62,330 bases of DNA from the IMG/VR virus record IMGVR_UViG_2522125086_000002. One strand, 5' to 3'. Position 1 is the stretch's first letter; every line of letters begins with the position of its first letter. Of this stretch, positions 5,240 to 58,040 are shown one piece after another. This stretch comes from an uncultured virus (IMG/VR IMGVR_UViG_2522125086_000002). Lineage: Duplodnaviria; Heunggongvirae; Uroviricota; Caudoviricetes. The translations under genes and the position numbers were made by a program. The notes beneath the pieces are model-generated. The model did no database searches. It was given only the letters and a program-made list of their open reading frames with translations, and was not told the origin of the DNA.

Positions 5240-6829
5240 TTACCCCAAAAATTCAGAACCGTTTTTGAACCGGAAAATCAGTCTGCCATCAGTATATGCC
5301 GTAACATAATCTAGCAGACCGCACCAGAGATTTTCGCTGAACTCCGAAATTTGCCCATTCTGCTCCTTTAGCTTTCTAATGAAATTCTCGATGATGTTGC
5401 GATGCTTGAGAAGATCACTAAGTTTTTTATCGACGAGCTTTTTCTGTTCTTCCGCTGAGCTAAATTTTTGAGCAATCGCATCGTAGCTTTTACGGTATTC
5501 GTTCTGATCCTGTGCAGTGGTAGCGTTCTGATGGATTAGCTGCCGTAAAGCTGAATCGTGCGTCTGCATCTCGGTCAAGAGACTATGCTGTTTCTGCTCC
5601 AGCTCAGAGGTATTAAGGGTGGCGGCAAGAGCCTCCTCACAGGCTCTGATTGCATTTACAGAACCTGTTAATAGCTTATTGACGGCAATTGTGAATCGTT
5701 CTTTAATCTGATTCTCATCAAGGTAAGGTGTGGTGCAGCGTTTATCTTTGTTCTTGTATTTGTTATTGCACTGCCAGATGATTCTTCGGAACTTATCGTT
5801 GGAGTGCCATACCTTTGAGCCGTACCATCCGCCGCAGTCACCGCACTTGATTTTGTTTGAAAGGAGGTGAACGCCACTGTGACGGTTGTTCCCGGATGTG
5901 CGACGTGCAAGTTCAGCCTGAACCATGTCAAAGGTTTGCGGATCGATAATGGCTTCATGGTTATTTTCCACATAATACTGCGGCACTTCGCCCTGATTGA
6001 GTTTCATCTTCTTGGTCAGAAAATCCTCGCAAAAAGTCTTCTGGAGTAGGGCATCTCCTTTGTATTTTTCGTTGGAAAGAATGCTTTTTACTGAACTGCT
6101 GCTCCATGTATCACGACCTGCCGGAGTCTTGATTTTCTCCTCTGTCAGTTTTCGTGCAATAGTGTGCGGAGTCATTCCTTTCAGGAACATGGCGTAGATC
6201 TGCTTAACGACTTCAGCCTGTTTCTTGTTAAGCACCAAATTGCCATCCTCGCCCCGGTCGTAGCCGATAAAATGCTTAAAGGGAACAGTTACCTTGCCGT
6301 CAGCAAATCTCTTGCGCTGTCCCCATGTGCAGTTTTCAGAAATTGAACGGCTTTCCTCCTGGGCGAGTGAGGACATGATGGTCAGTAGCACTTCGCCTTT
6401 GGCATCGAAAGTCCAGATATTTTCCTTCTCGAAATACACCTCCGTGCCGTTTTCCTTGAGCTGTCTGATGGTTGTGAGACTGTCTACCGTATTACGGGCA
6501 AAACGGCTCACAGACTTGGTGACGATAAGATCAATTTTACCATCAAGGGCATCAGCAATCATTCGCTTAAAGCCTTCACGGCGTTTGGTGCTGGTTCCGG
6601 TGATGCCCTCATCGGTGTACACATCCACAAACTCCCAGTCATCACGGCCTTTGATGTAGTTGGTGTAATAATCAACCTGTGCCGTGTAGCTTGAGAACTG
6701 ATCGTCATGATCCGTTGAGACTCGCGCGTAACCTGCAACTTTCCTTTTATGCTTTGATGCGATGGGGGCAGACGAGAATCTGCCTAATGTCGCCGGTATG
6801 GTCTGAACCTTTCTAACTGTTACTGTCAT
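5240..6829 (-). CDS. Large serine recombinase (resolvase, recombinase, Zn-ribbon and coiled-coil domains)
   Basis: GYARVST catalytic motif, KSVSRFARN, LSNKIKCGDCG zinc ribbon. Confidence 0.95.
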   Translation of the reverse strand: MTVTVRKVQTIPATLGRFSSAPIASKHKRKVAGYARVSTDHDDQFSSYTAQVDYYTNYIKGRDDWEFVDVYTDEGITGTSTKRREGFKRMIADALDGKIDLIVTKSVSRFARNTVDSLTTIRQLKENGTEVYFEKENIWTFDAKGEVLLTIMSSLAQEESRSISENCTWGQRKRFADGKVTVPFKHFIGYDRGEDGNLVLNKKQAEVVKQIYAMFLKGMTPHTIARKLTEEKIKTPAGRDTWSSSSVKSILSNEKYKGDALLQKTFCEDFLTKKMKLNQGEVPQYYVENNHEAIIDPQTFDMVQAELARRTSGNNRHSGVHLLSNKIKCGDCGGWYGSKVWHSNDKFRRIIWQCNNKYKNKDKRCTTPYLDENQIKERFTIAVNKLLTGSVNAIRACEEALAATLNTSELEQKQHSLLTEMQTHDSALRQLIHQNATTAQDQNEYRKSYDAIAQKFSSAEEQKKLVDKKLSDLLKHRNIIENFIRKLKEQNGQISEFSENLWCGLLDYVTAYTDGRLIFRFKNGSEFLG

Positions 6830-8553
6830 TTTTTCTTTGCCTCCTTTAACTGTTTAAGTCTTTCGCTCATTGCCTTACGTCGTTCTTCAGTCCATTTTGT
6901 CTGTCTGACCTTGATGCAGTATTCAGCCTGCTCAGTATGACCATCAGTGAAGGTAAATTCCATAAGCCCGCTTCTGACCATTGTGATGTGGTCAATTTGT
7001 TTCATGAAAGCCTCACTGTCAAATTCCTCAAGTCCTAAAATACCAGCCGATATTTCCTTGAGTTCTTCTTCCGGAATGCCTTTAATGCCACAACCATTGC
7101 GGCATCTCCAGAATACTTTGTGATTTACTGATTTGTGTTCAGATTGACGTTTGACATTTTCACCGCAGCATCCGCATTTGATCCTGCATGTAAAAGGGTA
7201 GAAAGGTCCAATGCCTTTCAACATATAGTTCCGTCGAGATTCTCGATGTTTGTTTTTTAGCTCATCAGTCCAACAGTCTGTTCTGGCCTTAGAATGCCAT
7301 TCTTTGCTGATCACTCCACCTTCTACGAAATTGAAAAGCAGAATACCTTGGCAGGGGACATCGATTCGTTCAATTCGTTTGCTAAAAATCTGCTCATCAA
7401 ATTCATCAAGTCCTAAAACTTCAGAGCAACACTTCTTAATGATTGTTTCGGGAATTTCATTGGTTTCACAGAGTGCTGTGTTCTTGCGATGCCGACCGCA
7501 GTTCCAAGTGCGGTAATACCCATTGGCAGGTTGCAATGTTGAGTGGTATTTAACCCTGATTGATCTCGTGCATCTTATGAAGGAACTACCACATTTGCCA
7601 CATCGGAGTTTTCTGGTAAAGCATGTAGTATTGAGGCTTTTATTAGCGAAAGGTCCCAATTCTCTTCGTCTGGCCATTTCCTCCTGAACAAAGCGGAATG
7701 TTTTCATGTCGATTATCGGCTCATGGGTATTTTCCACGAAATACTGAGGTAACTGACCAGTATTTTTAATATGCTTTTTGGTAATCGGATCATCGGTAAA
7801 TTCTTTTTGCAGGAGCAGATTGCCTGTGTAGGTTATGTTGGTGAGCACAGTCTTAATACTGTGATCTCGCCATCGGCACCCATTTCTTGTTGTGATGCCT
7901 TCTGCTGCAAACTCTCTCTCTGTTTCAAGACGTGATTTCCCATCAAGGAAGTTCTGATAGATGCGTTTTACAATTTCGGCTTCATTAGGAATGATGACCA
8001 GATGATCACCTTCCCATCTGTAGCCGAAAACTCTTACTCGACCATGGGGAATGCCTTTCTGAAATCTTTTCCTAGCTCCCCATTTGACATTTTCCGAAAT
8101 GCTCCGACTTTCCTCCTGGGCGAAAGAGGCAAGGAGCGTCAGCATCAGTTCACCATCGCCCGACAGTGAACGAATACGTTCTTTCTCGAACTGTACCTCG
8201 ATGCCTAACTCCTTGAGCCTCCTCACCGTCTTGAGCAGGTCTACCGTGTTTCGGGCAAAACGGCTGATGGACTTTGTGAGAATAATGTCAATCTTCCCGT
8301 CCTCGCAGTCTCGTATCATTCGTTGAAACTCAGCTCTACGTTCAACATTTGTCCCGGAAATGAAACTGTCGGCATATATTCCTGCAAAGTCCCATTCAGG
8401 ATTGTTCTGAATGAGATCGTTGTAGTAGCTGATCTGAGCTGACAGGGAATGATCCAATCTGTCAGATTCCATCGATACTCTGGCATATGCCGCCACTCGT
8501 TTTCGAGTGGGTGGGACAATTCTTTTTACATCAATTTTCTTTATCGTTTTCAT
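6826..8553 (-). CDS. Large serine recombinase with two Zn-ribbon domains
   Basis: AYARVS, KSISRFARN, LRCGKCG and IKCGCCG. Confidence 0.95.
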   Translation of the reverse strand: MKTIKKIDVKRIVPPTRKRVAAYARVSMESDRLDHSLSAQISYYNDLIQNNPEWDFAGIYADSFISGTNVERRAEFQRMIRDCEDGKIDIILTKSISRFARNTVDLLKTVRRLKELGIEVQFEKERIRSLSGDGELMLTLLASFAQEESRSISENVKWGARKRFQKGIPHGRVRVFGYRWEGDHLVIIPNEAEIVKRIYQNFLDGKSRLETEREFAAEGITTRNGCRWRDHSIKTVLTNITYTGNLLLQKEFTDDPITKKHIKNTGQLPQYFVENTHEPIIDMKTFRFVQEEMARRRELGPFANKSLNTTCFTRKLRCGKCGSSFIRCTRSIRVKYHSTLQPANGYYRTWNCGRHRKNTALCETNEIPETIIKKCCSEVLGLDEFDEQIFSKRIERIDVPCQGILLFNFVEGGVISKEWHSKARTDCWTDELKNKHRESRRNYMLKGIGPFYPFTCRIKCGCCGENVKRQSEHKSVNHKVFWRCRNGCGIKGIPEEELKEISAGILGLEEFDSEAFMKQIDHITMVRSGLMEFTFTDGHTEQAEYCIKVRQTKWTEERRKAMSERLKQLKEAKKK

Positions 8554-9689: not shown

Positions 9690-12068
9690 TTATATCACAG
9701 CCGCTTTTGCTTTTATTTCATTACACCAACGATCTAGGGTACTACTAACATTACCGAGATGGGCAAGCATATGTTCTTTGTTTAAAAGATAGATGAAGCA
9801 GATTATCTCTTGGGCAGTACGTCTTTTCTCTGTTTCCGATATAACCGACAGGAAATCAATTCCTAGGCTCTGAGTTTGTTCTTCTCTGTGGCTACCATTG
9901 TTTAAAACGATTCGGTACATAAGGTTTTTAAAGTAGGATTTATGTTCGGGACACATTCTAGACAAAATAGTCTCATCAGTCGAAACCTCAATAATTCCCT
10001 TCTTGTACTCAAAAGTTGCAAATGCTTCTAGTGCCTGTCGCATAATATTGCCTATGACAATATCGTATTCACCACCATCGCCACAGCCATAACGATAAAT
10101 CATCTTAACAAGTTCTGTGTATTCCTGTCGCTTATACTCAAATCGTTTTAAAGCACAATTCTTTAATTCCAATAGATTGTATTTTGCTGCTTGCCCCGAA
10201 AATATTCTTTTCCATTCCGCTGATAATTCATTACAGATTTTTTCTAGATCAAATAATGTCAGTAAATCATGAGTTGTCACAATAGCTCTGCTGGTTGGAT
10301 TTCCATTCAAGAATTGACCAAGCTTGTATTTTAGGAAGGATAAGATTCCGATTTTGTTTTCAAAATCAAAACTGGATATTGGATCATCAATAACAAGTAG
10401 ATATTCGTCATTATAAGCAGTATCTTTATTCTTACCTTTCATTATACTGGTGAAGAAATAACAGAGCCCGATTATATTTCTCTCTCCAACGGACACATTC
10501 TTTGGAGGCACAGGTTTACCATTGGACAGAAGTTTATAGAAATCACCATCCCGTTCTATGGCAAGTCTATTTTCAGTAAAAAATATGTATTTTAACCCAT
10601 TGTTGATGATATCAATTGCTATGTCAATCCGTTTCCTACGCCCATTTAATTCATCCAAGTTTTTACTTTTTTGGTTCATATCAGAAATAGCATCATCACA
10701 TTCCTTTTTCACAGAGAGCTTTTCATTAGTTTGTTCATCAAGCTGTTTAGAAAAATCAATAACATCATAGTAAGCAATTTGATCATTTATAGATATTAGT
10801 GCATCAACTATGGGCTTTGTATTCACTGCGTTACTATTATGAGTTTCTTTCTCTACTTCAAGTGATGCTAGAGCTTTATCCAGTTTATTAATTAATTCGT
10901 CAATCTCTGAAAGTTCTTTATCAACAATTGGCGAATATGGTTCACATATTTTTTGTTGAAGCAACGTGTTGTTTGATCGTAAAGTAGTGTTTATTTCTAC
11001 AGTCAAATTTACGCATTTTTGATATGATGGTAATGATGAAAAAGGAGAAAGTTCTAATATCAGTTCACTAGTTATTTGAGAATTTAACTCTGTCTGATGG
11101 CTCTTGACCTCATCTGATAATACCTGCTTAATTTTAGCAACCAAGTTTCTTTTGTAATCTTGTGTTAAATCCTGAAGACAATATGGACAGAACGTCGTTT
11201 TCTCATCTCTGATTTGAGCTATGCGTGCGTTTAATTCATCTGCTTTTCCTGACGCTACCATCGACAATAGATATTGCTCACGATCTGAAAGTTCTGGCCT
11301 TTCAATTTTCTTTTTGATTAGTTCATTAGCCGAGGAGACTGAATACTCCTTATAACTAGAAGGAATAGCAGGCACAACAGCAACAATTGTGGATGTACCT
11401 TTCTTTGCGTCTTCTAGCTCCTTCATCTTATTACTGAACTCAACAATAAGTTCATCTTTAGATTTCGTAGGGGACAGGTTAATAAACCTTTTGTATGTAT
11501 CGTCATTCACGCGAGAATTCTGGCGTAATCCCCTTGCTTTACTGTCTCTTCCTGCCCATCCTTCATCTCGCTGAAGGGTGCAATGGATTTTATTGATATA
11601 ATATCGAGGTGCCTTTGGGTTTGTACTGGTCTGATACTCTTCAAATCTATCTTTTGTTGATTTTACTAAGGCTTCTGCCAGCTCAAGTTCGCTCTTAGCC
11701 TGTTCAATCTGGGCTGTTAAATCAGCTTGTTCACCAAGCATAACAATAGATTCAAGTTTGTTTCCTACTATGCATACATTTTTAGATACATAATCCTCAT
11801 CAAAAACATAAATGCTAGCTTTTTCGGTCTCTGATAATGTGATAGTCTGTTTCGCAGAATCAAGTGGGGTAGCTGTAATAGCACTAGAAAAATCTTCTCC
11901 CTTGATTTTCCGAAAAGACTTAGCAATTGTGCTTTTACCAGCACCATTACGACCATAAATTAATGAAATCTTAGAATACTTTTCATCTGATGAATCAAGT
12001 ACAGGCAAATCGGTTTCTGAGGAGAAGTTTGCCCCCTGTAATTTGATTAAAGATAAATCTTTTAGCAT
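9690..12068 (-). CDS. RloC-like ABC-ATPase (AAA_13) with zinc hook and C-terminal HEPN-like nuclease
   Basis: GRNGAGKST Walker A, CPYC hook within a coiled coil, SVGE signature, LLVIDDPISSFD Walker B, TTHD, NIMRQALE and RIVLNNGSH; AT-rich. Confidence 0.75.
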   Translation of the reverse strand: MLKDLSLIKLQGANFSSETDLPVLDSSDEKYSKISLIYGRNGAGKSTIAKSFRKIKGEDFSSAITATPLDSAKQTITLSETEKASIYVFDEDYVSKNVCIVGNKLESIVMLGEQADLTAQIEQAKSELELAEALVKSTKDRFEEYQTSTNPKAPRYYINKIHCTLQRDEGWAGRDSKARGLRQNSRVNDDTYKRFINLSPTKSKDELIVEFSNKMKELEDAKKGTSTIVAVVPAIPSSYKEYSVSSANELIKKKIERPELSDREQYLLSMVASGKADELNARIAQIRDEKTTFCPYCLQDLTQDYKRNLVAKIKQVLSDEVKSHQTELNSQITSELILELSPFSSLPSYQKCVNLTVEINTTLRSNNTLLQQKICEPYSPIVDKELSEIDELINKLDKALASLEVEKETHNSNAVNTKPIVDALISINDQIAYYDVIDFSKQLDEQTNEKLSVKKECDDAISDMNQKSKNLDELNGRRKRIDIAIDIINNGLKYIFFTENRLAIERDGDFYKLLSNGKPVPPKNVSVGERNIIGLCYFFTSIMKGKNKDTAYNDEYLLVIDDPISSFDFENKIGILSFLKYKLGQFLNGNPTSRAIVTTHDLLTLFDLEKICNELSAEWKRIFSGQAAKYNLLELKNCALKRFEYKRQEYTELVKMIYRYGCGDGGEYDIVIGNIMRQALEAFATFEYKKGIIEVSTDETILSRMCPEHKSYFKNLMYRIVLNNGSHREEQTQSLGIDFLSVISETEKRRTAQEIICFIYLLNKEHMLAHLGNVSSTLDRWCNEIKAKAAVI

Positions 12069-13239: not shown

Positions 13240-14073
13240 TCATTTCACTCTGTTTACGTTACTTCGTACTCGTCCGATAAAGTCTCTGTCGAGATATCCT
13301 TCCACCCGTTCGCAGGCAGAGAGGTATTTCTTCCACCAGGCATAGGCTCGAAAATCAAGATAGATGAATTTATTCCATGGTTTCTCCATTGAGAGGTAAT
13401 GCACCATCAGCGGTGCCATTTCCTTGTAGCCCGGATTGAACCAGATTGCATTAAACTCATTGGCAAGCGGATATTTCTTCTTGAAATGCAGATTCACGAA
13501 GTCCTGCTCCGGGCAGTACATGAAGTTTCCTTTTTCCTCAATTGTTTTGATAAATTTCTGATACAGCCCTTTGCATTCAGCCTTGTAGCACATAAGTCCG
13601 GTATTGAAATACAGCGGAGTGTTAACTACCTCCTTAAGGTTCATCTGCTTCATCCATCTGTCGCGGTTTTCACGTTCACTGACTCCGAAGATACCGGTCT
13701 TGTACTTTGATGTAATCTCCTCAAGCAGAGGAACCACAGAGCCGAGAAACAGAGTGTCCAAATCGAAGTTCAGGACACAGTCGGTTTCGGCAGAAACCTC
13801 CTCAAGAGCCTTAATCCTTTGTGCAATAGCAGGAACGGCACTGCGATGAATCATGAGTCTGTTACCTCCCACAGTGGCAAAAAGGTCATGCTGCGGAAAT
13901 GAAACATAACGAACCTCCACCAGTTCCTCCGGGACTACCGCAAGAACTCTACTGAGGTCAGTACCTTTTTCAGCGTAAATGATGAGTTCAATGCGGTTGT
14001 ATTTGAAAAATGAGCTGAGGGATACCACCGCCTGATTGATGTACCCCTCATCCAGAACTACGAATGCCTTCAT
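13240..14073 (-). CDS. Glycosyltransferase family 8
   Basis: DEGY, DLD (DxD), YFNTGLM, EQDFVN and HYLSMEKPW are GT8 hallmarks. Confidence 0.85.
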   Translation of the reverse strand: MKAFVVLDEGYINQAVVSLSSFFKYNRIELIIYAEKGTDLSRVLAVVPEELVEVRYVSFPQHDLFATVGGNRLMIHRSAVPAIAQRIKALEEVSAETDCVLNFDLDTLFLGSVVPLLEEITSKYKTGIFGVSERENRDRWMKQMNLKEVVNTPLYFNTGLMCYKAECKGLYQKFIKTIEEKGNFMYCPEQDFVNLHFKKKYPLANEFNAIWFNPGYKEMAPLMVHYLSMEKPWNKFIYLDFRAYAWWKKYLSACERVEGYLDRDFIGRVRSNVNRVK

Positions 14074-17000
14074 TGGTTATTCTCCTTTATGTCGTCTTTA
14101 AAAATGTCCTCTGAATAATTGATGAGCTTAAGTGAACAGCGGTTGCCGCTTTCCGGTTTAACGGCAGTAACCCAGCAGAGTTGCAGTTCACCGATGGCAA
14201 AAAGCGGATATTCGAGAGACTTGCCAAACTCGCTGTCCCAATCAATATCCGGGTAGGTATCAAGATAAAGTGTATGGCTGTCATTACGGTAAAAGGTATA
14301 TTCACCATAGGAGCCATCCTTTCTTGAGATATACACGATGCCTTCCCACACATCATCCGGTATCTCAATATCGGTGGTAACGGTCTGGCCGTTTATTCCG
14401 GTTATTCTTCCGGTGATGTTGGATAAGTTCTCATCAAGCATAAGTCCAACAAGGTCGTTAAACTGACAGTTGAGACCGTTAAGCTCGGTTTTGATTTCAT
14501 AGGTAACTCTGGTATTTCTGAGATACCTGAGTCTCCTCATGCCAAGAGCTACAGCATGGTCATAGTCTGTTACTCCCCAGGCATCAAGCTGCTCCTGATT
14601 ATCGGATTCAGGGTAGGAGGTAATGCGCTTATTCCCGTCAGCATCAACATGGCAGTACACCGTTTCGGTCTTGTAGGTCTTAGGCGAGGTGAAATTTACC
14701 ACCACCTCATCAACATCATCCTCCTTTGGCAGAGAACAGGTGATCACTGGACTTGAGGTCATATTGCTTTTGGTAAAAATCTGCGTTGGAGTTGCTCCCG
14801 CATAAAGCCTCTTAACCGATAAGGTATTGTCCCTTACCACCGGAACCGCAAATCCGCAGTTAAGAACATCCCTTAAACTTTCAAGTAATGTGCTGTCACT
14901 GTCGATAGAGCCGTTACATTCAAGTCCCTGAGAGCGCCAGAGCTCATCAAAATCCATCAGCGTATCGACATCAAGAATATTGCGGTATTTGGAGTTCCGC
15001 ACGATGTACTGAACCACGGGAGCAATATCTCTTGTTTCCACCAGAGGCAGATTATCTGAATACCCGAGAGCAGGAAGTTTTCTTGTCCAGTAAGTGGCAA
15101 GCTGATTTTCGGAAAGCTCGGATAAGGTTTCGTTTCCTTTGAACCTGCAGATGAGTACCGTCATGTTGTCATATCGGTCAATGGTGCTGATTACGCTTTT
15201 AAGGCCTACCCATTTAATCTCCTCAAGAGCACGGGTAGAGCCGTCCTCCTGGGAGGTTCTTAGAACCCTGAACTCATAATTTCCGGCGGTTGCAAGTTCG
15301 ATTCTTACCGTTTCAGCAAGCTGGTCATTGGTGTTGTTGATCCAGGTTTTCTCAATCACGGTGTACGGCTCATTTGAACCTGCTCGGCGGTACTCAATTT
15401 GAATGCTGATAGAAAGCTTGTCGAACTCACCATCATCGTTAAGCTTGCCGAGACCTCCCGGCATGGAGAAATCCAGCTCAAAGATTTTTGATTCAGCACC
15501 ATACGGACATGCCCGGTAAGGTCCAACATAACCGCCGTCACTTGCCTGACCGCTTACCAGAGTAAAAAGCACATGCTCCTGATTGACTCCGGTGGAATAA
15601 AAGCCATGCCAGTCTGAAATCTCACCGTAGCTGTCGTTAAGACGCTTAACCGTGTAGACACCGTTGATGTAATCAAGAATTTCATAAAGGCCGTTATCCT
15701 CATATGGATAATCCGCAGGCATCGGCTGAAACACAGAGCCAGCCAGGTGATTTGCCGTAGCGGTTATTTTCGTGTAGGGCTGAGACGGAGTAACCTCCTC
15801 GGGGTATGCAGGAACAGTCAAATCTGAACTGTCGAACTTTAGCGTAACATTCTCACCGGACCTTATCACTTCGAGTATTTCACAGAGCGCCTCGGTGGTA
15901 TTCGCCTCATCTTCGGTTACGGTTTTACCGCCGCTGCAGCCTGACGGAATGGTATCGTAGGTAATAGAAGTTACGGCAGAAAGAGTAACCTTCAAATAAT
16001 CACCATTACGGGTAATTACCTCGGTCCCGGTTTCCTCGTCAACGCTGGTCTGAATTTCTGTGGCTCTTGCACGGAAAAACTCATCAGACTTAAATCCGTC
16101 AGTGCATTTCAGCGTGAGCGTAGTAATACCAGATGCGGCATCAGTTTCTGCTGCAACAATCTCAGTACCGACAAGACGTGTGTTTCCTGCTCCGCTTAAC
16201 TCAAAGATTGTGCCGTTCGCCCATTTCAAATCAAGGTTCTGTTTAATGTGTACCGTCTCAGTACCGCCACCGGAGCAACCACCGTAACCGATGCTGTATA
16301 TCCTGTAGTTGCAGCCGCTGAAGGTATTGCCCTTAAACTCAAGATTCACACCGTTCATGGAGGAGGTGTCGATTTTACCCTGACCGCTTTTTAAGGTATG
16401 ACCGCTCTGGGTAACCTCGGTTGATGAGTACCAGCAGTACCAGGATTTGTCCTCCGGGGAATTTTCAGCGGTAATCTTTACTCCCGGTTCAATGACATAA
16501 GCGGAGCAACCCTTGAGTTCACTGATTGGCGTCTCGCCGATGTAGATGTCTGAGTGATCTGACTTGTAGTCATAATGCCCGATCCCTTGGCATAAAATCA
16601 TGTCACAGAAAAGAGTATTGTTGCGGTAAAACACATGACGGTCAGCGAGGTAATCAGGGAATCTCTTGAAGAAGCCAAAGTTCTCCGGGATGATTTCCAT
16701 GAGCTTTACCTTATTGCCCTGGACATTTACATCATAGATGGAGTTTCCCTGTTTGGTGTTTTTCTGTTTATTCTTGCCGAGCTTATGCATACTCACCATG
16801 GCATAAACGGCACTCGCCACACCAATCACCACGGAAATGATGGCAGCGATGGCAGTACCGGTTACACCGGGTTCGATGACGAATTTTAAGTGATCGCATT
16901 TCTGGATTAAGAGTGCAGGCCATTCAGTCTGTTCTACCTTTCTGCCGTTAACAAAGAGCGACAGATAAGGTTTCAGTTCAGGATTGTATGAAGCAATCTG

Positions 17001-17099
17001 TGAGTGGAGCAGTGAGGTCAAACTGCCGCTGTATTCCGGCAGTTCAAGCTGCTCGAGTACCTGGTTTAGGTCCTCTCTGGTTACAATTTCAAGTTTCAT
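14070..17099 (-). CDS. Tail tip / host specificity protein (TipJ-like, with gpI-like N-terminus)
   Basis: Follows NlpC/P60; SIYDVNVQGN, IPENFG...FPDY, GPYRACP, YEFRVLR. Confidence 0.8.
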   Translation of the reverse strand: MKLEIVTREDLNQVLEQLELPEYSGSLTSLLHSQIASYNPELKPYLSLFVNGRKVEQTEWPALLIQKCDHLKFVIEPGVTGTAIAAIISVVIGVASAVYAMVSMHKLGKNKQKNTKQGNSIYDVNVQGNKVKLMEIIPENFGFFKRFPDYLADRHVFYRNNTLFCDMILCQGIGHYDYKSDHSDIYIGETPISELKGCSAYVIEPGVKITAENSPEDKSWYCWYSSTEVTQSGHTLKSGQGKIDTSSMNGVNLEFKGNTFSGCNYRIYSIGYGGCSGGGTETVHIKQNLDLKWANGTIFELSGAGNTRLVGTEIVAAETDAASGITTLTLKCTDGFKSDEFFRARATEIQTSVDEETGTEVITRNGDYLKVTLSAVTSITYDTIPSGCSGGKTVTEDEANTTEALCEILEVIRSGENVTLKFDSSDLTVPAYPEEVTPSQPYTKITATANHLAGSVFQPMPADYPYEDNGLYEILDYINGVYTVKRLNDSYGEISDWHGFYSTGVNQEHVLFTLVSGQASDGGYVGPYRACPYGAESKIFELDFSMPGGLGKLNDDGEFDKLSISIQIEYRRAGSNEPYTVIEKTWINNTNDQLAETVRIELATAGNYEFRVLRTSQEDGSTRALEEIKWVGLKSVISTIDRYDNMTVLICRFKGNETLSELSENQLATYWTRKLPALGYSDNLPLVETRDIAPVVQYIVRNSKYRNILDVDTLMDFDELWRSQGLECNGSIDSDSTLLESLRDVLNCGFAVPVVRDNTLSVKRLYAGATPTQIFTKSNMTSSPVITCSLPKEDDVDEVVVNFTSPKTYKTETVYCHVDADGNKRITSYPESDNQEQLDAWGVTDYDHAVALGMRRLRYLRNTRVTYEIKTELNGLNCQFNDLVGLMLDENLSNITGRITGINGQTVTTDIEIPDDVWEGIVYISRKDGSYGEYTFYRNDSHTLYLDTYPDIDWDSEFGKSLEYPLFAIGELQLCWVTAVKPESGNRCSLKLINYSEDIFKDDIKENNQ

Positions 17100-17484
17100 T
17101 TTTCCTCTTTGGAAGATTTGTATGTCTGTAGATCTTTGTTTCTACAAACTGCATTGATTTGATCTTTTCAACTCTGGCATGACGATTAAGACCGGTATGC
17201 AGCATTTCTCCTTTACCGAGATGTACCGCCACATGAAAGATTTGGCCATGCCGGAAGAAGGCAATTACATCACCGAACTTCGCCTCGTCAGCAGTAATCT
17301 CCCGAAAGGAATTCCGGGAAGTTTCCTTCTCGTATCCGTCCTTAATGCAGAAATCTGTGTAGTCATCAAGCTCTATGCCAAGCTCCCGGCGGTAGAACTC
17401 GATGACAAGTCCCCAGCAGTCAAGGAATGGGTATTTTCTGCCGTTTGGTGTGTGTCTGATGAGAAGATAATGATTAAGCCACAT
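17089..17484 (-). CDS. NlpC/P60 tail tip assembly protein (gpK-like)
   Basis: DCWGLV, GDVIAF, HVAV, MLH. Confidence 0.85.
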   Translation of the reverse strand: MWLNHYLLIRHTPNGRKYPFLDCWGLVIEFYRRELGIELDDYTDFCIKDGYEKETSRNSFREITADEAKFGDVIAFFRHGQIFHVAVHLGKGEMLHTGLNRHARVEKIKSMQFVETKIYRHTNLPKRKNET

Positions 17485-17938
17485 ATTTAAGCCCCGGTGC
17501 ATTTGATGCGGTATAGCGAAGGCGCGGAAACTCAAGATTCAGCATGTCGCAGAAGGATGCGGTAAAGGTTGCTGATTCCCGGGTGATGCGCCCGCCGGTG
17601 ATGGTTAAGGTGAGTTCCGAGAGCTTGTTGTGGCTCTCGTAATGCCACTGGGTAACGGTGATGTAGGTCGGCGTCTGAGCTTCAATAACCCGTTTCATGT
17701 ATTCGTAGGCTTCACCGCTTACTCCGTCAACACCGAAGGACAGATCTGAAAATCCGCTGTCAGACCTTTCCGGCATGGAGACAGTAAAGGCTGACTTCTT
17801 GTATTCGTCTCCCCAAAGTGTCAAATCCTCATAACCAAGTACATAACGCAATGTGCCTATGGTTTCATTCTCTATGGTGAGAGTTACAACGGGGAGCCTG
17901 CCGCCACTCGCGTAGATTTCTTCAAGTGAATAAAGCAT
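17474..17938 (-). CDS. Minor tail protein (DUF1833/gpL-like)
   Basis: LEEIYASG, DLSFGVDGVSGE, FPRLRYT...PGLKY; synteny. Confidence 0.75.
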   Translation of the reverse strand: MLYSLEEIYASGGRLPVVTLTIENETIGTLRYVLGYEDLTLWGDEYKKSAFTVSMPERSDSGFSDLSFGVDGVSGEAYEYMKRVIEAQTPTYITVTQWHYESHNKLSELTLTITGGRITRESATFTASFCDMLNLEFPRLRYTASNAPGLKYVA

Positions 17939-17947
17939 AATGCCTCC

Positions 17948-18622
17948 TTAACTGAACCAGGATAGGTATTCCACCTCACTAGAATCAGGCTTAACCTTGA
18001 TAATGCGGCCAGCCCAGTCATCGATTTCATAGGAATAAAAGCTCCAGGTGGTATTGCCGTTGTTGTCGTTAAATTCCACATATCCGTCATACGGATAACC
18101 TTTGAGAAGATTCAGCTTAAAAACGTAATAGCCGAGTTTATTCTTTTTGAGCTTGATACCCGGCCACTCGTAATTGGTGTAATAGGCCACCCAGATATAG
18201 GCATAAAGATCATCCCAGCCTTCAGGGTCAATCCATACTTCATCACCGCCAATACCGGGTTCTACATCAAGTCGGCACTGTACCGACCATAACGGACCAT
18301 CGCTGTTAACGCAGTTAAGCGTGGTGGAGAGTTCTCCTTTCTGTATGCGGCAGAGCGATTCTGTACCGCCGTACTCGTTAAGAAGCTGCATATAGAACCA
18401 GTCCTGACCGTAGCTGATGTCGTTGCGGTACCATGCCATGAATTCCTGATATTGACTCTGGGTAAACATGAAGGTAACTGAAAGCTCATGCGGTGTTCCG
18501 GTATTAACCAGTCTCTGCCTTACGTGGCCATCTGCCATCTGGGTTCTGATGATGTTGGGTTTTATTTTGTAGCTGTAGCCTCTCTGCTGTGGAGGCGGCA
18601 GAGAGGAAGGATAATAGTTCAT
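17948..18622 (-). CDS. Distal tail protein (gpM-like) with C-terminal CBM26-like carbohydrate-binding module
   Basis: N-terminal YPSSLPPP...IIRTQMADGHVRQR...GQDWF right after the tape measure; C-terminal PEGW-DDLYAYIW...WPG...GYY...VEFNDNNGNTT. Confidence 0.7.
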   Translation of the reverse strand: MNYYPSSLPPPQQRGYSYKIKPNIIRTQMADGHVRQRLVNTGTPHELSVTFMFTQSQYQEFMAWYRNDISYGQDWFYMQLLNEYGGTESLCRIQKGELSTTLNCVNSDGPLWSVQCRLDVEPGIGGDEVWIDPEGWDDLYAYIWVAYYTNYEWPGIKLKKNKLGYYVFKLNLLKGYPYDGYVEFNDNNGNTTWSFYSYEIDDWAGRIIKVKPDSSEVEYLSWFS

Positions 18623-18625
18623 GAA

Positions 18626-21343
18626 TTAACTCCCCATACGGTTGAGGTTGAAGGTATTCTGAATCGCCATGCTCATAGAGCCGCCATGCCGGATATCGGA
18701 AACAAATATGTCTACGATTCGGGTTTCGTCATCATCACGGGTTTCTACGGTTCCTGCTTTCTCGGTACTCTCGTAAAGATTCACGATGACACCGCCACCA
18801 TAACCGGAGGAGCCATTAACGGCAGAACGGGCAAGCTCCGCTGTTTCCTTTCGTGAGGTGATAGACATCGGTCCCTGAACGAGTTCCGGTCCGTATTCCC
18901 CCACAATACCCCATTCACCAGCTTTGAGCTGTCCGCCTTTATCATGCATAGATACAGAGGTAAGTTGGGAAATAGCTGATGTGGTGGTTGCCATGGCAGA
19001 GGCATAATTGGCGAGTTTCTGAGGCCAGGTAACCGCTGACGGATCATTTAAAGCAGCAATCCATGCTTTTATCGCGTCCATGGTGGCACTGGCTACTGCA
19101 AAACTTTTCTGAACCGCAAACAGAGCACGATAGGCACCGGAGGATTCATCCATGCTGTCGGTAAGACTTGCAAAGGCATCGGAGATGTCCAGAGTGGCAT
19201 CAGCCATTTTCTCGTAGGGCTCGGTCATCTTTTTAAGTTCATCAGCCTGTTTACGCTGCTTTACCGTGGTGCTGTCAGAGGTGTATTTATCCATGAGCTG
19301 AGTGCGGCTCTGCTGATAGGCTTCCTCGGAAATAAGCTGGTCGTTGTGGAACTGCTCCAGGAGTTCAAGCTTTCTGCCGTAACCTTCCTGAATACGCAGA
19401 ATTTACTCTTCCTCGGGATTAAGTGAACGCAGAAAGTCCTGTGCTTCTTTCTCGATTTCTGCCCTCTGGGTCTGATAGTCCTGCTCGATGATGAGGAGTG
19501 CATTATTCTTCTCAATTTCAGAGATTTGAGCATTCTCGGCAATAACCGCATTAAGCTCCTGAAGCTTTTTGATGTGTTCACGCTCGAGCCTTTCAAGGTC
19601 GCTCTTTGACTTCATGTCGAGTTCAAGAATCTGCTCGTAATAAGGCGTCCAGGTATCACGAGCCTCGGCAGATTTGGAGAGAGCACCGCCGGAGCTTTTA
19701 CCTTTGCCGGAGTCCTTATTTGCGCCAATCTTTAAGCCTTCATCAGACTGGGTGCCTTCACCCACAGGTTTATTCTGGTACTTTTCAGCGATGCGCTTAC
19801 GCTCAGCGGCAATACGGTTCTGAGACTCGGTGATGTCCTTTTCAATTCCGGCAATGGTAGCCTTGTAGATTTTTGCAGTTTCCTCTGCTTCTCTTTTGGT
19901 TCGCTCTCTGGCAAAATCAAAGCCTTCCGAGAAGGTTCCTCCGGAAAGAGAAGTTCCGATACCTTCACCAATGGCATTGAGGTAGCCGATAGTGTTATCC
20001 CAGAGTTCTCCGACTTTCTGACTAAGCTCAAGAAGACCAATCTGGGCAAACTGAAAAAAGTTTGAAAAGAAGAGCTTCCAGCTCCCGGTACCGTCCTTCA
20101 TCTCAACACCGATAAGCTCAAGGGTGTCACTGAAAAAGTCCTTCACACCTTCCCATGCGGTGCGTATTCCTTCAAAGGTCTCTTTTACCGTTTTGGCAAG
20201 ATTGTGGAACCACTCAATTACCGCAGGATCATCCAGCCATTCAGAAATTCCGTTCAGGGTATTGGCAAGAAAGTCATTACCCATAATGATGAGTTCTCCG
20301 AAACCGCCGTTTGACTGCATGAGTCTGGTGCAGAAAGTCCCCCAGGCATTATCCAGTCTTCCGGTGGCGGCAGATACAGTGTTGAGTTTAGCTTCCAGTA
20401 CGCCATCAAAGTTGTTCTTTGCCAAATCAGAGAGATAGGAATCCAGAGCCTTGCTGTTCTTTTCAATCTCGGTGGTGGAGCCTTTGTAGGTTAAGGAGAT
20501 GGTGTCACCATTGTCCTTTGCGGTGATGCCAAACTGCCTGAGAGCCTTGGTAGAGCCCTGGGAGAAAGCAATAACCGCATCAGTTAAGGTGTTGATGTCT
20601 CTTCCGGTGCCATGAGCAATGGTGGCGTAGGTCTTAAGCTGCTCATTTGAGTTGGTAAGTCCGTTATTGCCTAAATCCACAAAGGCTTTAGCGAGTTTGT
20701 CAGTAGCGGTAGCAGTCTCGTCCTCAAGACCGTTAAGGCTCCAGAAGGTTTTCTGAGCAGTTTCCAAATCACCAACCAGTGGAGTCAGTCTTGCCGACAT
20801 ATCCTCGTAAACCCGTGAGGCTTCAAGTCCGGTGGAGATTATGCTCTTAAAACCGTCCACGATTTCAGAGGCAAACTTAATGGCAAAGCCTGTCATCAGC
20901 ATTTTCCAGCCGGAGGCGTTTTTCTGCAGAACTCCGGTCTGATTGTCCACGGCTTTGGTGACCTTTTTGATTTCAGCTTCCTGCTCCTGCATGATCTTCT
21001 TCTGCTCGGCAAGCGTGGTATTGGCATCCTTCTGTTGAGAGTTCTGGGTTTCAAGAGCCTTGCTGATTTCCTTTGTAACCTTGCTCTGCTTCGCACCGAG
21101 GTCGGTTACGGTTTTAGTCTGAGCTTCAATTGAATCCGTTACGGTCTTAACGCTCTCATCAAGTCCGTGAATGGCGGCATTGGTAGCCTCTGCCTGTTTT
21201 GCGGATGCATCAAAGTTTGCTCCTATAGCCGCAGCCGAGGAGGAAACAGCGTCCTTCATGGCCGTCATCTCTTCGGCAATTTTGCTGAGTGAGTCAGTCA
21301 GAGCAGACGTGTCGGCAGAAAGCCTGATGGTGCTGTCGTTCAT
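18626..21343 (-). pseudogene. Tape measure protein interrupted by an in-frame TAA at 19403-19405
   Basis: The 646-aa and 222-aa ORFs are in the same frame, joined by 36 open codons; C-terminal HDKGG...GEYGPELV motif. Confidence 0.85.
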
Positions 21344-21886: not shown

Positions 21887-22378
21887 TTATTCTCCTTCGT
21901 TATCAGTAGTTTGAGTCTGTTCAGCCACATCGGCATTTGACCACACAACATCAGATGCCTGTCTGCCAGAAACCTTAAGCTGCATAAAGCCGTCAGCAGA
22001 GCCGGACATAATCTGATAGCCGAGAAGCTTCAAATCGTAGGTAGCTCTGGTGCCGTTCGGCCACTGATGACGAATTCGGACAGTCTGTTGTGCCTCGGCG
22101 GCAGCAATGAGAGCCTGCTGGTCAGCGTCATCATCGTAGTAATAGATGGTGAGTTCCTTTTCAGCAGAATCCTTCAAACCACCGCAGTAAACCTTTCTGT
22201 CATCATCGATGGTGGTGCATTCCACGGATTCGGCAATGTCACCGATATCCCCAAGCTCTTGAGCGCCTTTAAGCGGCAACCAGGTAACTCCATCATCGGT
22301 TGAGAACTGGGAATGAGTACCTCCGAGAAGTACCGGCTCCTTTGCCTTGTAATCGTAAAGCTGTGTATGTTTAGCCAT
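21887..22378 (-). CDS. Major tail tube protein
   Basis: ECTTIDDDRKVYCGGLKD, IRHQWPNG; synteny. Confidence 0.8.
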   Translation of the reverse strand: MAKHTQLYDYKAKEPVLLGGTHSQFSTDDGVTWLPLKGAQELGDIGDIAESVECTTIDDDRKVYCGGLKDSAEKELTIYYYDDDADQQALIAAAEAQQTVRIRHQWPNGTRATYDLKLLGYQIMSGSADGFMQLKVSGRQASDVVWSNADVAEQTQTTDNEGE

Positions 22379-29849: not shown

Positions 29850-30137
29850 CTAATTGTTGGCGTTCTTCATCGCCCATTCAAGAGCATGGCCGTCATCCAT
29901 AAAATCGACACCACTTACCTCCCGAAGCCCGATCTCGGCCTCGCAGCCGGTGTCTTCGGTGAGGAACTCGTAAACCGCGCCGTAGTAGGATGGCTTGCCT
30001 GCTCCGTTGTAGTAATGTCCTGCCAGGATTACCTTATCACCGAATCTTAAGGTCTTGCTCCAGCGACATTCCAGATCCTCCGGAGTGGTAGGATTTGGTA
30101 ATCTGTAGGTTCTTGCTCTTTCTGTCATCTTGCTCAT
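29850..30137 (-). CDS. Hypothetical phage protein
   Basis: GGAG RBS; preceded by a repeated promoter motif. Confidence 0.65.
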   Translation of the reverse strand: MSKMTERARTYRLPNPTTPEDLECRWSKTLRFGDKVILAGHYYNGAGKPSYYGAVYEFLTEDTGCEAEIGLREVSGVDFMDDGHALEWAMKNANN

Positions 30138-30335
30138 TTTTAAGTCTCCGTTGTTGTTCTCGATGACTGTATATTCGCTCTGTACCAAAGGTATAGCAAG
30201 TCAATAAGTACGTATTTCTGTACTATTTTTTTCTTCTAACCAATCGTTCTTTTCTTCTAAAATCAGGCAAAAATAGAAGAAAGATAAAATAATGAGAAGA
30301 AAAAAGGAGGCCTCTCTGACCTCCCGCACTTCACC

Positions 30336-30773
30336 TTACCCCGCGACTCTGAAAAGGTAGCCGTGGGCTTTTTCGTGTTCGTCGCTGTTCCATCCGGTGT
30401 AGCGGCTGTTGATTTCAACCAGCCCCTCGAGGGTGCATCCTGCCTCTTTGAAAAGCCATGCGGTTTCTACTGCGTGACTCCATCCGGAGGAAAAGGTGAA
30501 CCTCTCGATTCCGTTCTGCCTCATGGCTTCAATCAGCTTTGCCGCTTCGTTATCCCATACCACTTCGCTGATGTCGAGGTAATCGTTGCCGCTGTCCCGG
30601 GAAACCTCGTACTCGTTAAAAAGTCGGCAGGCTTCTCTGCCAAGTTCCTTTAGTTCATCCCAGACTGCCTTGTAGGCGGCTCTGGCGGCGTTCAGCTCAT
30701 CCTCGTTCTTTGCTATGTCGTAGGCGTTCTTTGCAGCCTTGATGCGGTTGTAAAAGTTCTCGAAAGTGTTCAT
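30336..30773 (-). CDS. Conserved hypothetical phage protein (DUF7698-like)
   Basis: GIERFTFSSGWS...AWLF...GCTLEGLVEIN; AGGAG RBS. Confidence 0.65.
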   Translation of the reverse strand: MNTFENFYNRIKAAKNAYDIAKNEDELNAARAAYKAVWDELKELGREACRLFNEYEVSRDSGNDYLDISEVVWDNEAAKLIEAMRQNGIERFTFSSGWSHAVETAWLFKEAGCTLEGLVEINSRYTGWNSDEHEKAHGYLFRVAG

Positions 30774-30873
30774 GTTTAACTCCTTGAAAAATGTACCTTC
30801 GCTGTTCGTTTTGTTGTGTTCATATTCGCTCTGAAGGTACACTATAGCAAGTCAATAAACCCAGTATTTTCAA

Positions 30874-31086
30874 CTATTTACAAGGTTTTTCAGCGAGCTT
30901 TTCGCGGGTGATTTCGAGGACTTTTTCCTGCTTTTCCTTCGGTATTCCGGCAGCCTCCAAAGCCTCCAGAGTTCCGCAGTCGGGGCAGATTGGAGTGGTG
31001 TTGTCCTTTCGGGAAAGAGCCGGAACTTCGGTGTAGGTTCTGCCGCAGAGCGGGCATACTTTCGGTTCGTTTTTATCAGTCTTCAT
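30874..31086 (-). CDS. Small zinc-finger protein
   Basis: CPLCG...PALSRKDN...ICPDCG. Confidence 0.7.
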   Translation of the reverse strand: MKTDKNEPKVCPLCGRTYTEVPALSRKDNTTPICPDCGTLEALEAAGIPKEKQEKVLEITREKLAEKPCK

Positions 31087-31218
31087 TCTGTAATCCTTAT
31101 GATGGAATTAAATCGTTAAACCGGGCGGTGCGGGAGTTTTGGACTCTCCGCCATCCGCCTTACGGTGTTCATATTTGCTCTTAATGCACACCTTATCAAG
31201 TCAATAAATCCTTTATTT

Positions 31219-31701
31219 TCAATGGTTTAACGTTATTTCATCACTGGTTTCCAGACTTATGTTGAGAGCCTCATAAATGAAGTTTTCGTCAAAGCCGAAG
31301 GCTTCATAACCGTCAAGGCAGATATCAACGTACCGCTGGGAAGGAACGCCGATTTCGCGCTCTTCGTGCATGATGTAGATGAAGGCCTTAAGCTTTCTTA
31401 CCTTGCGATCACTAATGCCGATAACCGGAATTTCCACTTCCGTCTTGTAGTAGAAATTCGGATAACCTTCGTAGCGGTCAAGGGAAAGCTCATCATCAGC
31501 CGTTACCTCCCATACCGCCACAGGAACACACGATCCTTTCTTTGGCTCGATGGTAAGGTAGGCACCGCTCTTACTTCCCTTAAAGAGAAGCTCAAAATCC
31601 GGTATTTCCGATGTGCCTACAACCTTTGCGCCGGGGCAGCGGTAGCTCATCTGGTCAATGTTCAGGTTGCTGCCGTAGGCGATGTAATATCTCTTTGTCA
31701 T
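31219..31701 (-). CDS. Gamma-glutamylcyclotransferase (AIG2-like) protein
   Basis: YIAYGSNL and LDRYEG motifs; paired with the amidoligase. Confidence 0.85.
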   Translation of the reverse strand: MTKRYYIAYGSNLNIDQMSYRCPGAKVVGTSEIPDFELLFKGSKSGAYLTIEPKKGSCVPVAVWEVTADDELSLDRYEGYPNFYYKTEVEIPVIGISDRKVRKLKAFIYIMHEEREIGVPSQRYVDICLDGYEAFGFDENFIYEALNISLETSDEITLNH

Positions 31702-31805
31702 AATCTTTTCCTTTCGTTTTTGTTTAACTTCGGAAGGCTTACCCTTCTACTGCCGAAACCCCACTCAAGGGGCCGGCAGGAGGAGGCTAAGTCCTCGCTG
31801 GGGGT

Positions 31806-32750
31806 TTAGGCTCTTCCGAACCGGAAGGCTGCGTTTCCGCTAAGGTTGCGGGTTAAAATCTCGCGGGCGGTTGCAAATTCCTCGCCGATGAAGCCGAGGC
31901 GCAGGAGCCAGGTTCTCATCGCGAACTTAGGATTCTCATGCTGCTGTGGCTTTGGGCTTGCGGTTCTTACTTCCTTTGCCATCTCGCTTAAGGCCAGGCA
32001 AAGCTGAATGTAGCTCTTAAGCTGTCCGGCGTGGATGCCGTTCTGCTTTCCGCCTGCTGGTGCATCGAACTGGAAAAGTCTGAACTCAACCGTGCCCTTG
32101 GTGAAGGTGGCGTGGAGGTTAAGCATTCTGTAGCGTGATGCGTTGTAATGGTGGTCTCTGCCGTAGGTTTCACCCTGGCTGGTGTACCAGATGTCGCTAA
32201 GTTCTTCTTTTGTCTGTGGCTTCTTTTTGTTGAGCTCCTTAAGGAATCTTGGGTCTACCGTTCTGCAGTATCTTGCCATGCGGTGCTGGTCAAGCTTCAG
32301 GGCTTCGGCTAAAAGGCTCTCGTGGCTTGCCATCAGGTTCGCAAGGTTGCGCAGGGTCTTTGCGGTGTGGTCTGCCGCACCGATGTGGATGTGAACTCCG
32401 CATCCGCGGGTAGCGTCGCTCTTTGCTCCGGCCTTGCGAAGTCTTCTGCAAAGCTCCTGCAGGGTTTCGATGTCGCTGTAGTTAAGGATCGGGGTAACCA
32501 TCTCACACTTGTGTGCGTCGTCGCCGGCGATGCTTACATCCTTCTGGAACTTCCATTCGCGGCCTTCGGCGTCCCAGGCGCTAACCGTGCTGTAGCCGTT
32601 GCGGTAGGCGGTATCTTCAACCCTGTGTGTTCCGAAGAATTCTGCGGCAATCTTGGCGGCCTCGAGGCGGGTAATGCTGTTCATCTCAACTTCAACTCCG
32701 ATGGTCTGGTTCTTGAGGTTTGCTATCTGCTTTAAGGTTTTTTCTTTCAT
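31806..32750 (-). CDS. Amidoligase_2 family (COOH-NH2 ligase) protein
   Basis: IGVEVEM, DVSI, EMVTPIL, CGVHIHIG, RYRMLN, TVEFRLF. Confidence 0.9.
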   Translation of the reverse strand: MKEKTLKQIANLKNQTIGVEVEMNSITRLEAAKIAAEFFGTHRVEDTAYRNGYSTVSAWDAEGREWKFQKDVSIAGDDAHKCEMVTPILNYSDIETLQELCRRLRKAGAKSDATRGCGVHIHIGAADHTAKTLRNLANLMASHESLLAEALKLDQHRMARYCRTVDPRFLKELNKKKPQTKEELSDIWYTSQGETYGRDHHYNASRYRMLNLHATFTKGTVEFRLFQFDAPAGGKQNGIHAGQLKSYIQLCLALSEMAKEVRTASPKPQQHENPKFAMRTWLLRLGFIGEEFATAREILTRNLSGNAAFRFGRA

Positions 32751-32875
32751 TTTTGTGCCTTCTTTTTGGTTAATGTTTGTTCGTTTTGTTGTGTGTATAT
32801 TCACTCTGAAGGCACACTATAGCAACTTAATAATCGATTATATTTCGATATTTGTTTTGTATATAAATCATTGAT

Positions 32876-49881: not shown

Positions 49882-49882
49882 T

Positions 49883-50410: not shown

Positions 50411-50705
50411 GGAGATATTTTGATTCGATAAAAACAATGAAATGCGATTGATATTGTGGTGAATAGGTTGCTTGAAAATACAGTATCGATCGCGGCCTAG
50501 ACACTATAGCTTATATAAACGAATTTTTGAAGTTTGTAAAATAATTGTATAAAAAATATTCTTGTTTTCAGAATTTTATGTTTTTTGTGGTTTTGTAATA
50601 AGAATTTTGTATCACAACTGTGGTAACATGCAAAGTTAATCAATTTGTATGAGTTGGTGATAATTTATGTCCTGTTACTGATATTTTGTGAGGGAGGAAC
50701 AGCCT

Positions 50706-53474: not shown

Positions 53475-53489
53475 GAGGTTTTGAAACAA

Positions 53490-57807: not shown

Positions 57808-58040
57808 GCGGTACAAGAGAAAGGACAAAACTCATTTTCAATAACGATTTCTATCAACATTTCACAGAAAATAATTATGATATGTGATATGTTGTCACGA
57901 ATTTGCAAATTTAACGTTATTTAGCCTTTATTATCCCTACAGTATTTGGTTATGAGTTTTTTATGCGACTATGATAATTTCATTTGTAAATGTTGATTTG
58001 CAATAATAAGTTCGATGCACAGTTTAAAGGAGAGCTATAG

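Follow-up and report, generated by a model that had tools for sequence, protein, structure and literature searches.

Does a phage tail carry a module from a starch-binding family that is otherwise found on amylases, and, if so, what would such a module hold on to? The question is raised by a gene at positions 17948..18622, on the minus strand, of a 62,330-nucleotide stretch of DNA from an uncultured virus of the Caudoviricetes (IMG/VR record IMGVR_UViG_2522125086_000002), hereafter referred to as the window. The gene encodes 224 amino acids plus a stop codon, and it was annotated from the list of open reading frames (ORFs), PHROG phrog_384, and the Pfam family CBM26 (carbohydrate-binding module family 26) as a distal tail protein gene with a C-terminal CBM26-like module. 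The best explanation of the locus is a distal tail protein (DTP, or Dit) of the lambda gpM type, belonging to a siphovirus-type prophage of an amylolytic Succinivibrionaceae host.

Domain organization of the protein

Three parts were distinguished along the protein. Residues 1-120 (N-domain; 18263..18622, minus strand) correspond to the tail-tube-like beta-sandwich of gpM-type distal tail proteins, as indicated by an AlphaFold2 (AF2) model, VIA-align, Foldseek, and homologs. They are followed by the linker EPGIGG (residues 121-126; 18245..18262, minus strand; alignment A1), which in relatives is longer and rich in Gly and Ser (translations of L003 and L005). Residues 127-224 make up the C-domain of approximately 98 residues (17951..18244, minus strand), a predicted CBM26-like beta-sandwich according to Pfam, AF2, Foldseek, and VIA-align. 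The protein sequence includes ...CRLDVEPGIGGDEVWIDPEGWDDLYAYIWVAYYTNYEWPGIKLKKNKLGYYVF...YVEFNDNNGNTTWSF..., and EPGIGG is followed by DEVWIDPEGWDDLYAYIW...EWPGIKL...GYYVF...VEFNDNNGNTT.

An earlier note, drawn from the sequence alone, had described a gpM/Dit-type start and a starch-binding module behind a PGIGG linker. The sequence it quoted is present exactly in the ORF at 17948-18622, though on the minus strand, and the plus-strand frame across the same positions is interrupted by stops (ORF check). The two-domain layout, in which a distal tail protein is joined to a CBM25/26-type beta-sandwich, was borne out by Pfam and by structure matches.

Sequence and fold of the C-terminal domain

The Pfam family CBM26 (PF16738), the sole Pfam match to the protein at E<=1, covered residues 133-192 (window 18047-18226) with an E-value of 9.8e-6 and a score of 26.1 bits, while a six-frame scan of the genome gave the same window positions 28.8 bits, above the family cut-off. 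CBM26 was matched by 12 of the 13 aligned members of the protein family at E<=0.01 (best 7.4e-8), and P0005, P0010, P0012, and P0013 bear PF16738 in precomputed annotation. Residues 200-224 form an additional, conserved strand region at the C-terminus, beyond the 70 positions of the Pfam CBM26 model.

A phmmer search with residues 125-224 against 1.84 billion representative proteins returned 21 proteins at E<=1e-3, and 14 of them were scanned with Pfam. Nine contained CBM26 above the cut-off, in two to nine copies each, with partners that included CBM20, X25, dockerin/cohesin, and type IX secretion system (T9SS) sorting domains. P0032 (27.4 bits) and P0017 (25.2 bits) fell just under the cut-off, and the scan found no CBM26 in P0025, P0034, and P0030. 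The seven proteins outside the scan were close relatives or fragments, along with two proteins longer than 3,400 amino acids. When a seven-sequence profile of the domain was compared with 177,635 PDB sequences, three matches were obtained at E<=10, namely the CBM26 of Amy13K (E 0.035), Sas6 (E 0.085), and an unrelated endonuclease (E 6.7). Single-sequence phmmer searches of the PDB, with the whole protein and with residues 125-224, gave chance-level matches and nothing relevant, the best being a beta-hexosaminidase (E 0.11) and an enterotoxin (E 0.79). Additionally, a tblastn search of the C-domain against 50,697 deposited phage records yielded no match at E<=1.

Modeled in isolation from a 12-row alignment, the C-domain reached a predicted local distance difference test (pLDDT) score of 88.9 and a predicted template modeling (pTM) score of 0.82. 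Foldseek ranks 1-13 were occupied by the CBM26 of Amy13K, Sas6, CBM25 modules, and Sas20 (E 1.5e-3 to 1.6e-2), with a probability of 1.00 for 6b15_A, Sas6, and CBM25. A VIA-align search of 48,161 PDB chains, which is independent of Foldseek, found six chains at Z>=5, all six of them starch-binding CBMs (6b15_A 7.7, 7rft_B 7.6, 2c3v_A 7.2, 7uwu_A 6.8, 2c3g_A 5.8, and 1b90_A 5.2). The best match, 6b15_A (CBM26), was superposed over 93 aligned residues at a root-mean-square deviation (rmsd) of 3.5; the fold does not separate CBM25 from CBM26.

Four independent routes, namely the Pfam hidden Markov model (HMM), phmmer, the PDB profile, and the two structure searches, therefore converge on CBM26/25. 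This agreement bears on the possibility that the resemblance to CBM26 arose by chance or from composition and that the C-terminal part is an unrelated immunoglobulin (Ig)-like decoration. A Pfam score under the gathering cut-off, fold scores that stayed under a Z of 8, and the empty single-sequence searches of the PDB would fit such a decoration, but Ig and fibronectin type III (FN3)-like domains ranked lower against the domain model, with a Z of about 4 only, and in view of the four routes this explanation is largely refuted and highly improbable. The C-domain is predicted to be a CBM26-like beta-sandwich, an assignment whose weight lies in the agreement of the routes, the Z-scores themselves being middling. 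The module proposed behind the PGIGG linker is backed by Pfam, profile, and structure matches alike, and its CBM25/26-type fold survived modeling with AF2 and comparison by Foldseek and VIA-align.

The putative glucan platform

In the published description of RbCBM26, the CBM26 of Sas6, cyclodextrin stacks on W63 and Y55 and receives hydrogen bonds from Y53, K101, and Q103. W63 is described as equivalent to the Trp of LaCBM26 (W32), whose mutation abolishes binding, and within the CBM26 family the aromatic platform is reported to be conserved while the hydrogen-bond network is variable. In the window protein, Y142, W144, and W153 align to Sas6 Y53, Y55, and W63, both in the HMM alignment and in an alignment with the bona fide CBM26 P0031. 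Every one of the 12 gpM-fused members is aromatic at all three platform positions (Y or F, W or Y, and W). Judged from these alignments, Y142, W144, and W153 constitute a putative glucan platform. The Gln of the CBM26 'QT' motif presumably corresponds to Sas6 Q103.

A local difference was observed in the relative encoded at L015:2799-3092, whose N-domain is 98% identical to that of the window protein. The loop at residues 185-191 is rewritten there, with VEFSNARDLFTSNISFYNF replacing VEFNDNNGNTTWSFYSYEI; by alignment, this stretch of the module coincides with the region of CBM26 that hydrogen-bonds the sugar.

The N-terminal domain as a distal tail protein

Residues 1-120 matched no Pfam family at E<=1, and so did not match the family of lambda gpM, which we take to be Phage_min_tail (PF05939); similarly, the 224-residue protein matched no NCBIfam family. 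The PHROG family phrog_384 ('virion structural protein') matched residues 3-155 with an E-value of 3.6e-33. In a tblastn search of the whole protein against the 50,697 phage records, 171 records were matched, all below 60% identity and all via the N-domain, and none of these spans 80% of the query length. They came mainly from phages of Vibrio (81), Pseudomonas (48), and Klebsiella (37). The homologs in Pseudomonas phage PS-1 (168 amino acids) and in a Klebsiella prophage (157 amino acids) are located between the tape measure gene and a gene at the position of DUF1833, which is annotated as DUF1833 in the Klebsiella record and as 'hypothetical protein' in PS-1. For both homologs, reliable alignment is confined to residues 1 to approximately 120.

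The full-length AF2 model found its best Foldseek match in the Sf11 tail chain 9occ_C (E 2.1e-5). With VIA-align, this Sf11 DTP chain reached a Z of 14.0 over 118 aligned residues (rmsd 4.5; model residues 1-125 against 3-126), followed for the N-domain by lambda 8iyk_E (10.3), T1 9l9p_H (8.6), the gene transfer agent (GTA) chain 6tba_6A (8.1), the T5 chain 7qg9_V (6.8), which is presumably pb9, and the SPP1 Dit (5.5). The matched Sf11 chains, of 163 and 165 residues, are probably gp17, whose modeled span is 3-165, and the 109-residue length of 8iyk chain E points to lambda gpM. Sf11 gp17 is described as a distal tail protein, modeled over residues 3-165 and present in six copies per virion in a ring; lambda gpM is likewise described as a 109-residue distal tail protein that forms a six-copy ring between tube and hub.

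The window protein thus combines the two marks of a distal tail protein, a tail-tube-like N-terminal beta-sandwich and a gene placed between the tape measure and hub genes. The full-length fold rests on a 13-row alignment, since a deeper collection of homologs added little (a profile search of 5.8 billion proteins gave 27 matches, mostly of the same family and fragments), and the alignments behind both fold predictions are shallow. The gpM/Dit-type reading of residues 1 to approximately 120 is upheld by fold and gene order, without Pfam support.

Carriers and their amylolytic genes

Named genome records encoding the protein were Succinivibrionaceae in six of six loci. They comprise two rumen metagenome-assembled genome (MAG) records (99% identity), UBA3769 (71%, on two contigs), a Succinimonas sp. 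MAG (69%), and Ruminobacter amylophilus DSM 1361, whose copy is 91% identical across residues 99-224 and truncated by the end of the contig. Phage contigs binned into MAGs can be mis-binned; the R. amylophilus DSM 1361 record is from an isolate. Within the bacterial family to which the window belongs, a match was found in 11 of 98 genomes.

The genome that harbors the window (3.96 Mb, 97% complete) contains seven CBM26 matches in a six-frame scan. It encodes three GH13 alpha-amylases of 1690, 1786, and 1542 amino acids with PKD repeats and CBM26, as well as a 938-residue pullulanase and a 1748-residue CBM25 protein. A review counts both R. amylophilus and Succinimonas amylolytica among the principal amylolytic bacteria of the rumen and, citing Anderson 1995, states that starch binds to cell-surface receptors of R. 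amylophilus before uptake. The expectation of an amylolytic gut or rumen host was borne out by the Succinivibrionaceae carriers together with the CBM26-bearing GH13 amylases of the genome. Recent capture of the module from the amylases of this host was also considered and is unsupported, as phmmer comparison with five host CBM25/26 proteins gave no significant match.

Proposed role at the tail tip

On balance, it appears probable that the DTP hexamer displays six CBM26 modules that bind alpha-1,4-glucan and hold the virion reversibly before a step that involves TipJ. By likeness to lambda and Sf11, the N-domain would assemble into a ring of six positioned between tail tube and hub, and each subunit would end in a short Gly-rich linker and the CBM26-family sandwich, so that one module per ring subunit would place six modules around the tail tip. 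Each module may bind alpha-1,4-glucan (starch, maltodextrin, or glycogen-like chains) weakly via Y142, W144, and W153, and hexavalency would convert this weak binding into useful avidity. Starch particles, or starch that a starch-binding host has captured on its surface, would then retain the virion reversibly before the TipJ-family protein provides a specific, irreversible contact.

The earlier note had gone further and proposed that the module may be a main adhesion device. This is overstated, because the specific contact with the host is probably made by a TipJ-family host specificity/hub protein of 1009 amino acids encoded downstream (14070..17099, minus strand; phrog_469 E 5e-151). Its residues 534-1000 matched NCBIfam NF040662 at 383.9 bits (cut-off 140), and the Pfam families FNIII-A_GpJ and Phage-tail_3 also matched. 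The accompanying statement that a separate tail fiber gene is absent held: the window gene list and Pfam scans showed no side-fiber or tailspike gene downstream of the TipJ gene, and GT8, holin, and amidase genes follow instead.

A more specific version, which we regard as possible though rather doubtful, is that the CBM26 ring uses a bridging receptor, binding starch or maltodextrin captured by the host or starch granules that the host has colonized. Adsorption would then depend on starch, and infection would therefore depend on starch as well.

Several observations weigh against alpha-glucan binding by a tail-borne CBM26 ring. The window protein scored 2 bits short of the CBM26 gathering score (28.1), every Z-score of the C-domain lay below 8, a range that may reflect a common arrangement according to the warning of the tool, and the full-length AF2 model is moderately confident (pLDDT 71.6). 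The Gln of the 'QT' motif is replaced by T191, and T, S, Y, Q, and F occur at this position in the family (MAFFT alignment with P0031). RbCBM26 alone is reported to show no detectable binding to granular starch and to bind oligosaccharides weakly; one module on its own may accordingly anchor poorly to granules. The module is also unlike the CBM26s of the host itself (best E 0.055 against the five host proteins). Lastly, the tape measure gene of the window contains a nonsense codon, so this copy of the prophage may be defective and make no virions.

The variable hydrogen-bonding positions and the rewritten L015 loop would also fit an arms race centered on a host-produced glycan, and the module could be a true CBM26-fold lectin for such a glycan and not for dietary starch. 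Candidate ligands include lipopolysaccharide (LPS) side chains with alpha-linked glucose, capsule, and a surface glycogen-like polymer, in line with the saccharide receptors bound by evolved Dits. The CBMs of evolved Dits in lactococcal and streptococcal phages have been described as binding cell-wall polysaccharide or exopolysaccharide (EPS) of the host, and the GT8 gene that adjoins the tail genes could modify the receptor in lysogens. However, the aromatic platform kept in all 12 fused members is typical of alpha-1,4-glucan recognition, and the named carriers are all Succinivibrionaceae, two of them in genera that the review lists as rumen starch degraders, an association that would be expected if starch were the ligand. 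We know of no surface alpha-glucan of the host, although no search was made for one. Overall, a lectin for a host-made glycan seems fairly unlikely.

Relatives and modularity of the C-terminal domain

At G000:C1:763405-764076 (L024, L042), the genome that harbors the window contains another, related prophage. Its DTP-CBM26 gene is 86% identical and again neighbors the tape measure, DUF1833, NlpC/P60, and a TipJ-like start. The identities of relatives to the two domains of the window protein were discordant: those of the N-domain and the C-domain, respectively, were 98.3% and 74.5% in L015, 79.2% and 95.9% in P0001, and 76.7% and 46.9% in P0010. Such a pattern suggests that the module is a swappable, mosaic add-on. 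In other prophages from this bacterial family, the N-domain is retained at 40-50% identity and is followed by a different sequence. For example, L037-L039 (215-217 amino acids) carry an acidic low-complexity tail of approximately 80 residues in place of the CBM, while the L040 protein ends after approximately 150 amino acids without a module. In L038 and L039, a different 413-residue protein takes the place of DUF1833 after the distal tail gene.

The module, including its C-terminal strand region, also ends the proteins P0043 (331 amino acids), P0032 (261 amino acids), and P0030 (99 amino acids). For the middle part of P0043, matches were obtained in 18 viral contigs as well as to a PHROG virion protein, and a search for viral contigs with P0032 returned no locus. 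The platform aromatics are lost in P0030 and P0043; the fold therefore survives without them. These distant copies lend some support to a further alternative, in which the C-domain has lost sugar binding and plays a structural role by docking another virion protein or stabilizing the tip, as does the reported function of the C-terminal extension of the Sf11 DTP as a tailspike adaptor. In the window, however, there is no tailspike or fiber gene downstream of TipJ whose product could dock, the gpM-fused family retains the platform aromatics throughout, and the flexibility of the Gly-rich linker points to free display of the module. A purely structural role is accordingly considered quite improbable, and a ring of glucan-binding modules remains the reading we prefer.

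Three metagenome predictions (P0014, P0015, and P0013) contain the phage C-domain at 96-98% identity on unrelated N-termini. In P0014, a shared 'TDPEGW' string marks the junction with a CBM48 pullulanase-like start, and the start of P0015 resembles a tape measure N-terminus. All three are probably assembly chimeras.

Late operon and neighboring genes

The minus strand of the window contains a complete siphovirus-type late operon. It begins, in order, with terminase, portal, ClpP protease, HK97-type capsid, head-tail connectors, and tail tube, the last encoded at 21887..22378 (minus strand; Pfam Phage_TTP_13, E 4.2e-9). Two small chaperone-sized ORFs lie between the tail tube and tape measure genes. 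Around the DTP gene the order is tape measure, DTP-CBM26, DUF1833, NlpC/P60, and TipJ, followed by GT8, holin, and amidase. The DUF1833 minor tail protein of 154 amino acids (17474..17938, minus strand; Pfam DUF1833, E 3.3e-9; phrog_396 'minor tail protein', E 1.6e-26) probably corresponds, by position and size, to the 156-residue baseplate hub 1 of Sf11. A gpK-like NlpC/P60 tail peptidase is encoded at 17089..17535 (minus strand; Pfam NLPC_P60, E 1.5e-12).

The tape measure protein gene (18626..21343, minus strand; PHROG tape-measure matches on both pieces) is split by an in-frame TAA at 19403-19405 on the minus strand (...SLNPEEE*ILRIQEGY...), as seen in the frame-0 read-through and in tblastn against L024. 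All three relatives read at this position have Glu there. The second tape measure copy in the same genome is uninterrupted across the C-terminal 366 residues contained in L024. Besides a true nonsense codon, the TAA may be a sequencing error or may be read through.

Between the TipJ gene and the holin lies a GT8 glycosyltransferase gene (13240..14073, minus strand; Pfam E 6.2e-10). The enzyme is a candidate for lysogenic conversion that may alter a surface glycan, with bearing on the phage ligand. Toward the recombinase end of the prophage, marked by two large serine recombinases (5240-8553), a 792-residue AAA_13 ATPase is encoded at window 9690-12068 on the minus strand, with a GC content of approximately 35%. 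It matches PADLOC PDC-S06 (E 1.7e-40), includes a PrrC-like stretch, and is likely a prophage-borne defense gene. Adjoining the terminase (window 29850-32804, minus strand), Nmad4, DUF7698, GGACT (gamma-glutamyl cyclotransferase-like), and Amidoligase_2 genes are clustered; the set resembles predicted phage systems for hypermodification of DNA bases. Beside the prophage, a low-GC island (approximately 35%; window 48157-61558) lies mostly on the plus strand, with 56451-57908 on the minus strand, and encodes type I restriction-modification (HsdR, HsdM, two HsdS, and a fused methylase-S) together with a McrBC-like pair.

Comparison with known systems and implications

The closest structural counterpart of the N-domain is Sf11 gp17 (PDB 9occ), which also carries an extra host-adhesion function at its C-terminus. 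The tail-tip set of Sf11, as described, is similar as well, with tape measure protein gp18, DTP gp17, the 156-residue hub 1 gp16, and a large hub 2 gp14; the gp numbers suggest a shared gene order. In contrast, Sf11 gp17 is reported to have 457 amino acids and an extension that consists of a helical adaptor docking O-antigen tailspikes and an appendage of unknown function, whereas the extension in the window protein is a small module of sugar-binding type and no tailspike gene is present. Lambda gpM resembles the window protein in the fold of the N-domain and in its place after the tape measure gene, but it has no C-terminal module.

The C-domain resembles the CBM26 modules of Eubacterium rectale Amy13K (6b15) and Ruminococcus bromii Sas6 (7uwu/7uww), which gave Z-scores of 7.7 and 6.8 at 18-21% identity, were the top profile-to-PDB matches, and share the aligned aromatic platform. 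Those modules, however, reside on amylases or amylosome scaffolds of Firmicutes. Unlike them, the phage module adds the conserved residues 200-224, and the sugar-bonding Gln of Sas6 appears to be replaced by Thr.

In evolved Dits, the C-terminal galectin-like domain contains an inserted CBM of the BppA type, which binds Gram-positive wall polysaccharide or EPS. Distal tail proteins with a CBM that aids adsorption to saccharides have been described in Skunavirus, P335, and S. thermophilus phages (PMC10688798, PMC7533335, PMC7291167). The likeness to these proteins that the earlier note had drawn stands insofar as a CBM is carried on a Dit; it does not extend to the host, which is Gram-negative, nor to the architecture, which is a C-terminal fusion and not an insertion into a galectin domain. 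No galectin domain is present, alignment of the SPP1 and p2 Dits is limited to residues 1-126, and the module, from a CAZy starch-binding family, is fused to a minimal gpM-sized domain. A literature search at the level of abstracts did not find a starch-binding CBM on a phage tail, which does not prove its absence. As Dit-borne CBMs are already known, a starch-family module on the distal tail protein of a phage with a Gram-negative host is a variation on the idea of the evolved Dit. Its small size, its position after a flexible linker, and its mosaic pattern across relatives should make the module easy to express and assay.

In the known phages of lactic acid bacteria, the ligand is wall polysaccharide of the host itself, whereas here the likely ligand is the substrate on which the host feeds. 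A virus carried as a prophage by a starch-eating rumen bacterium may thus find its host by sticking to the food of that host. If this is true, it would provide a testable example of a phage locating its prey through the nutrient niche of the prey, and it would tie phage pressure on Succinivibrionaceae to the starch in feed. Should starch also serve as the bridging receptor, phage predation on the starch degraders of the rumen would depend on diet.

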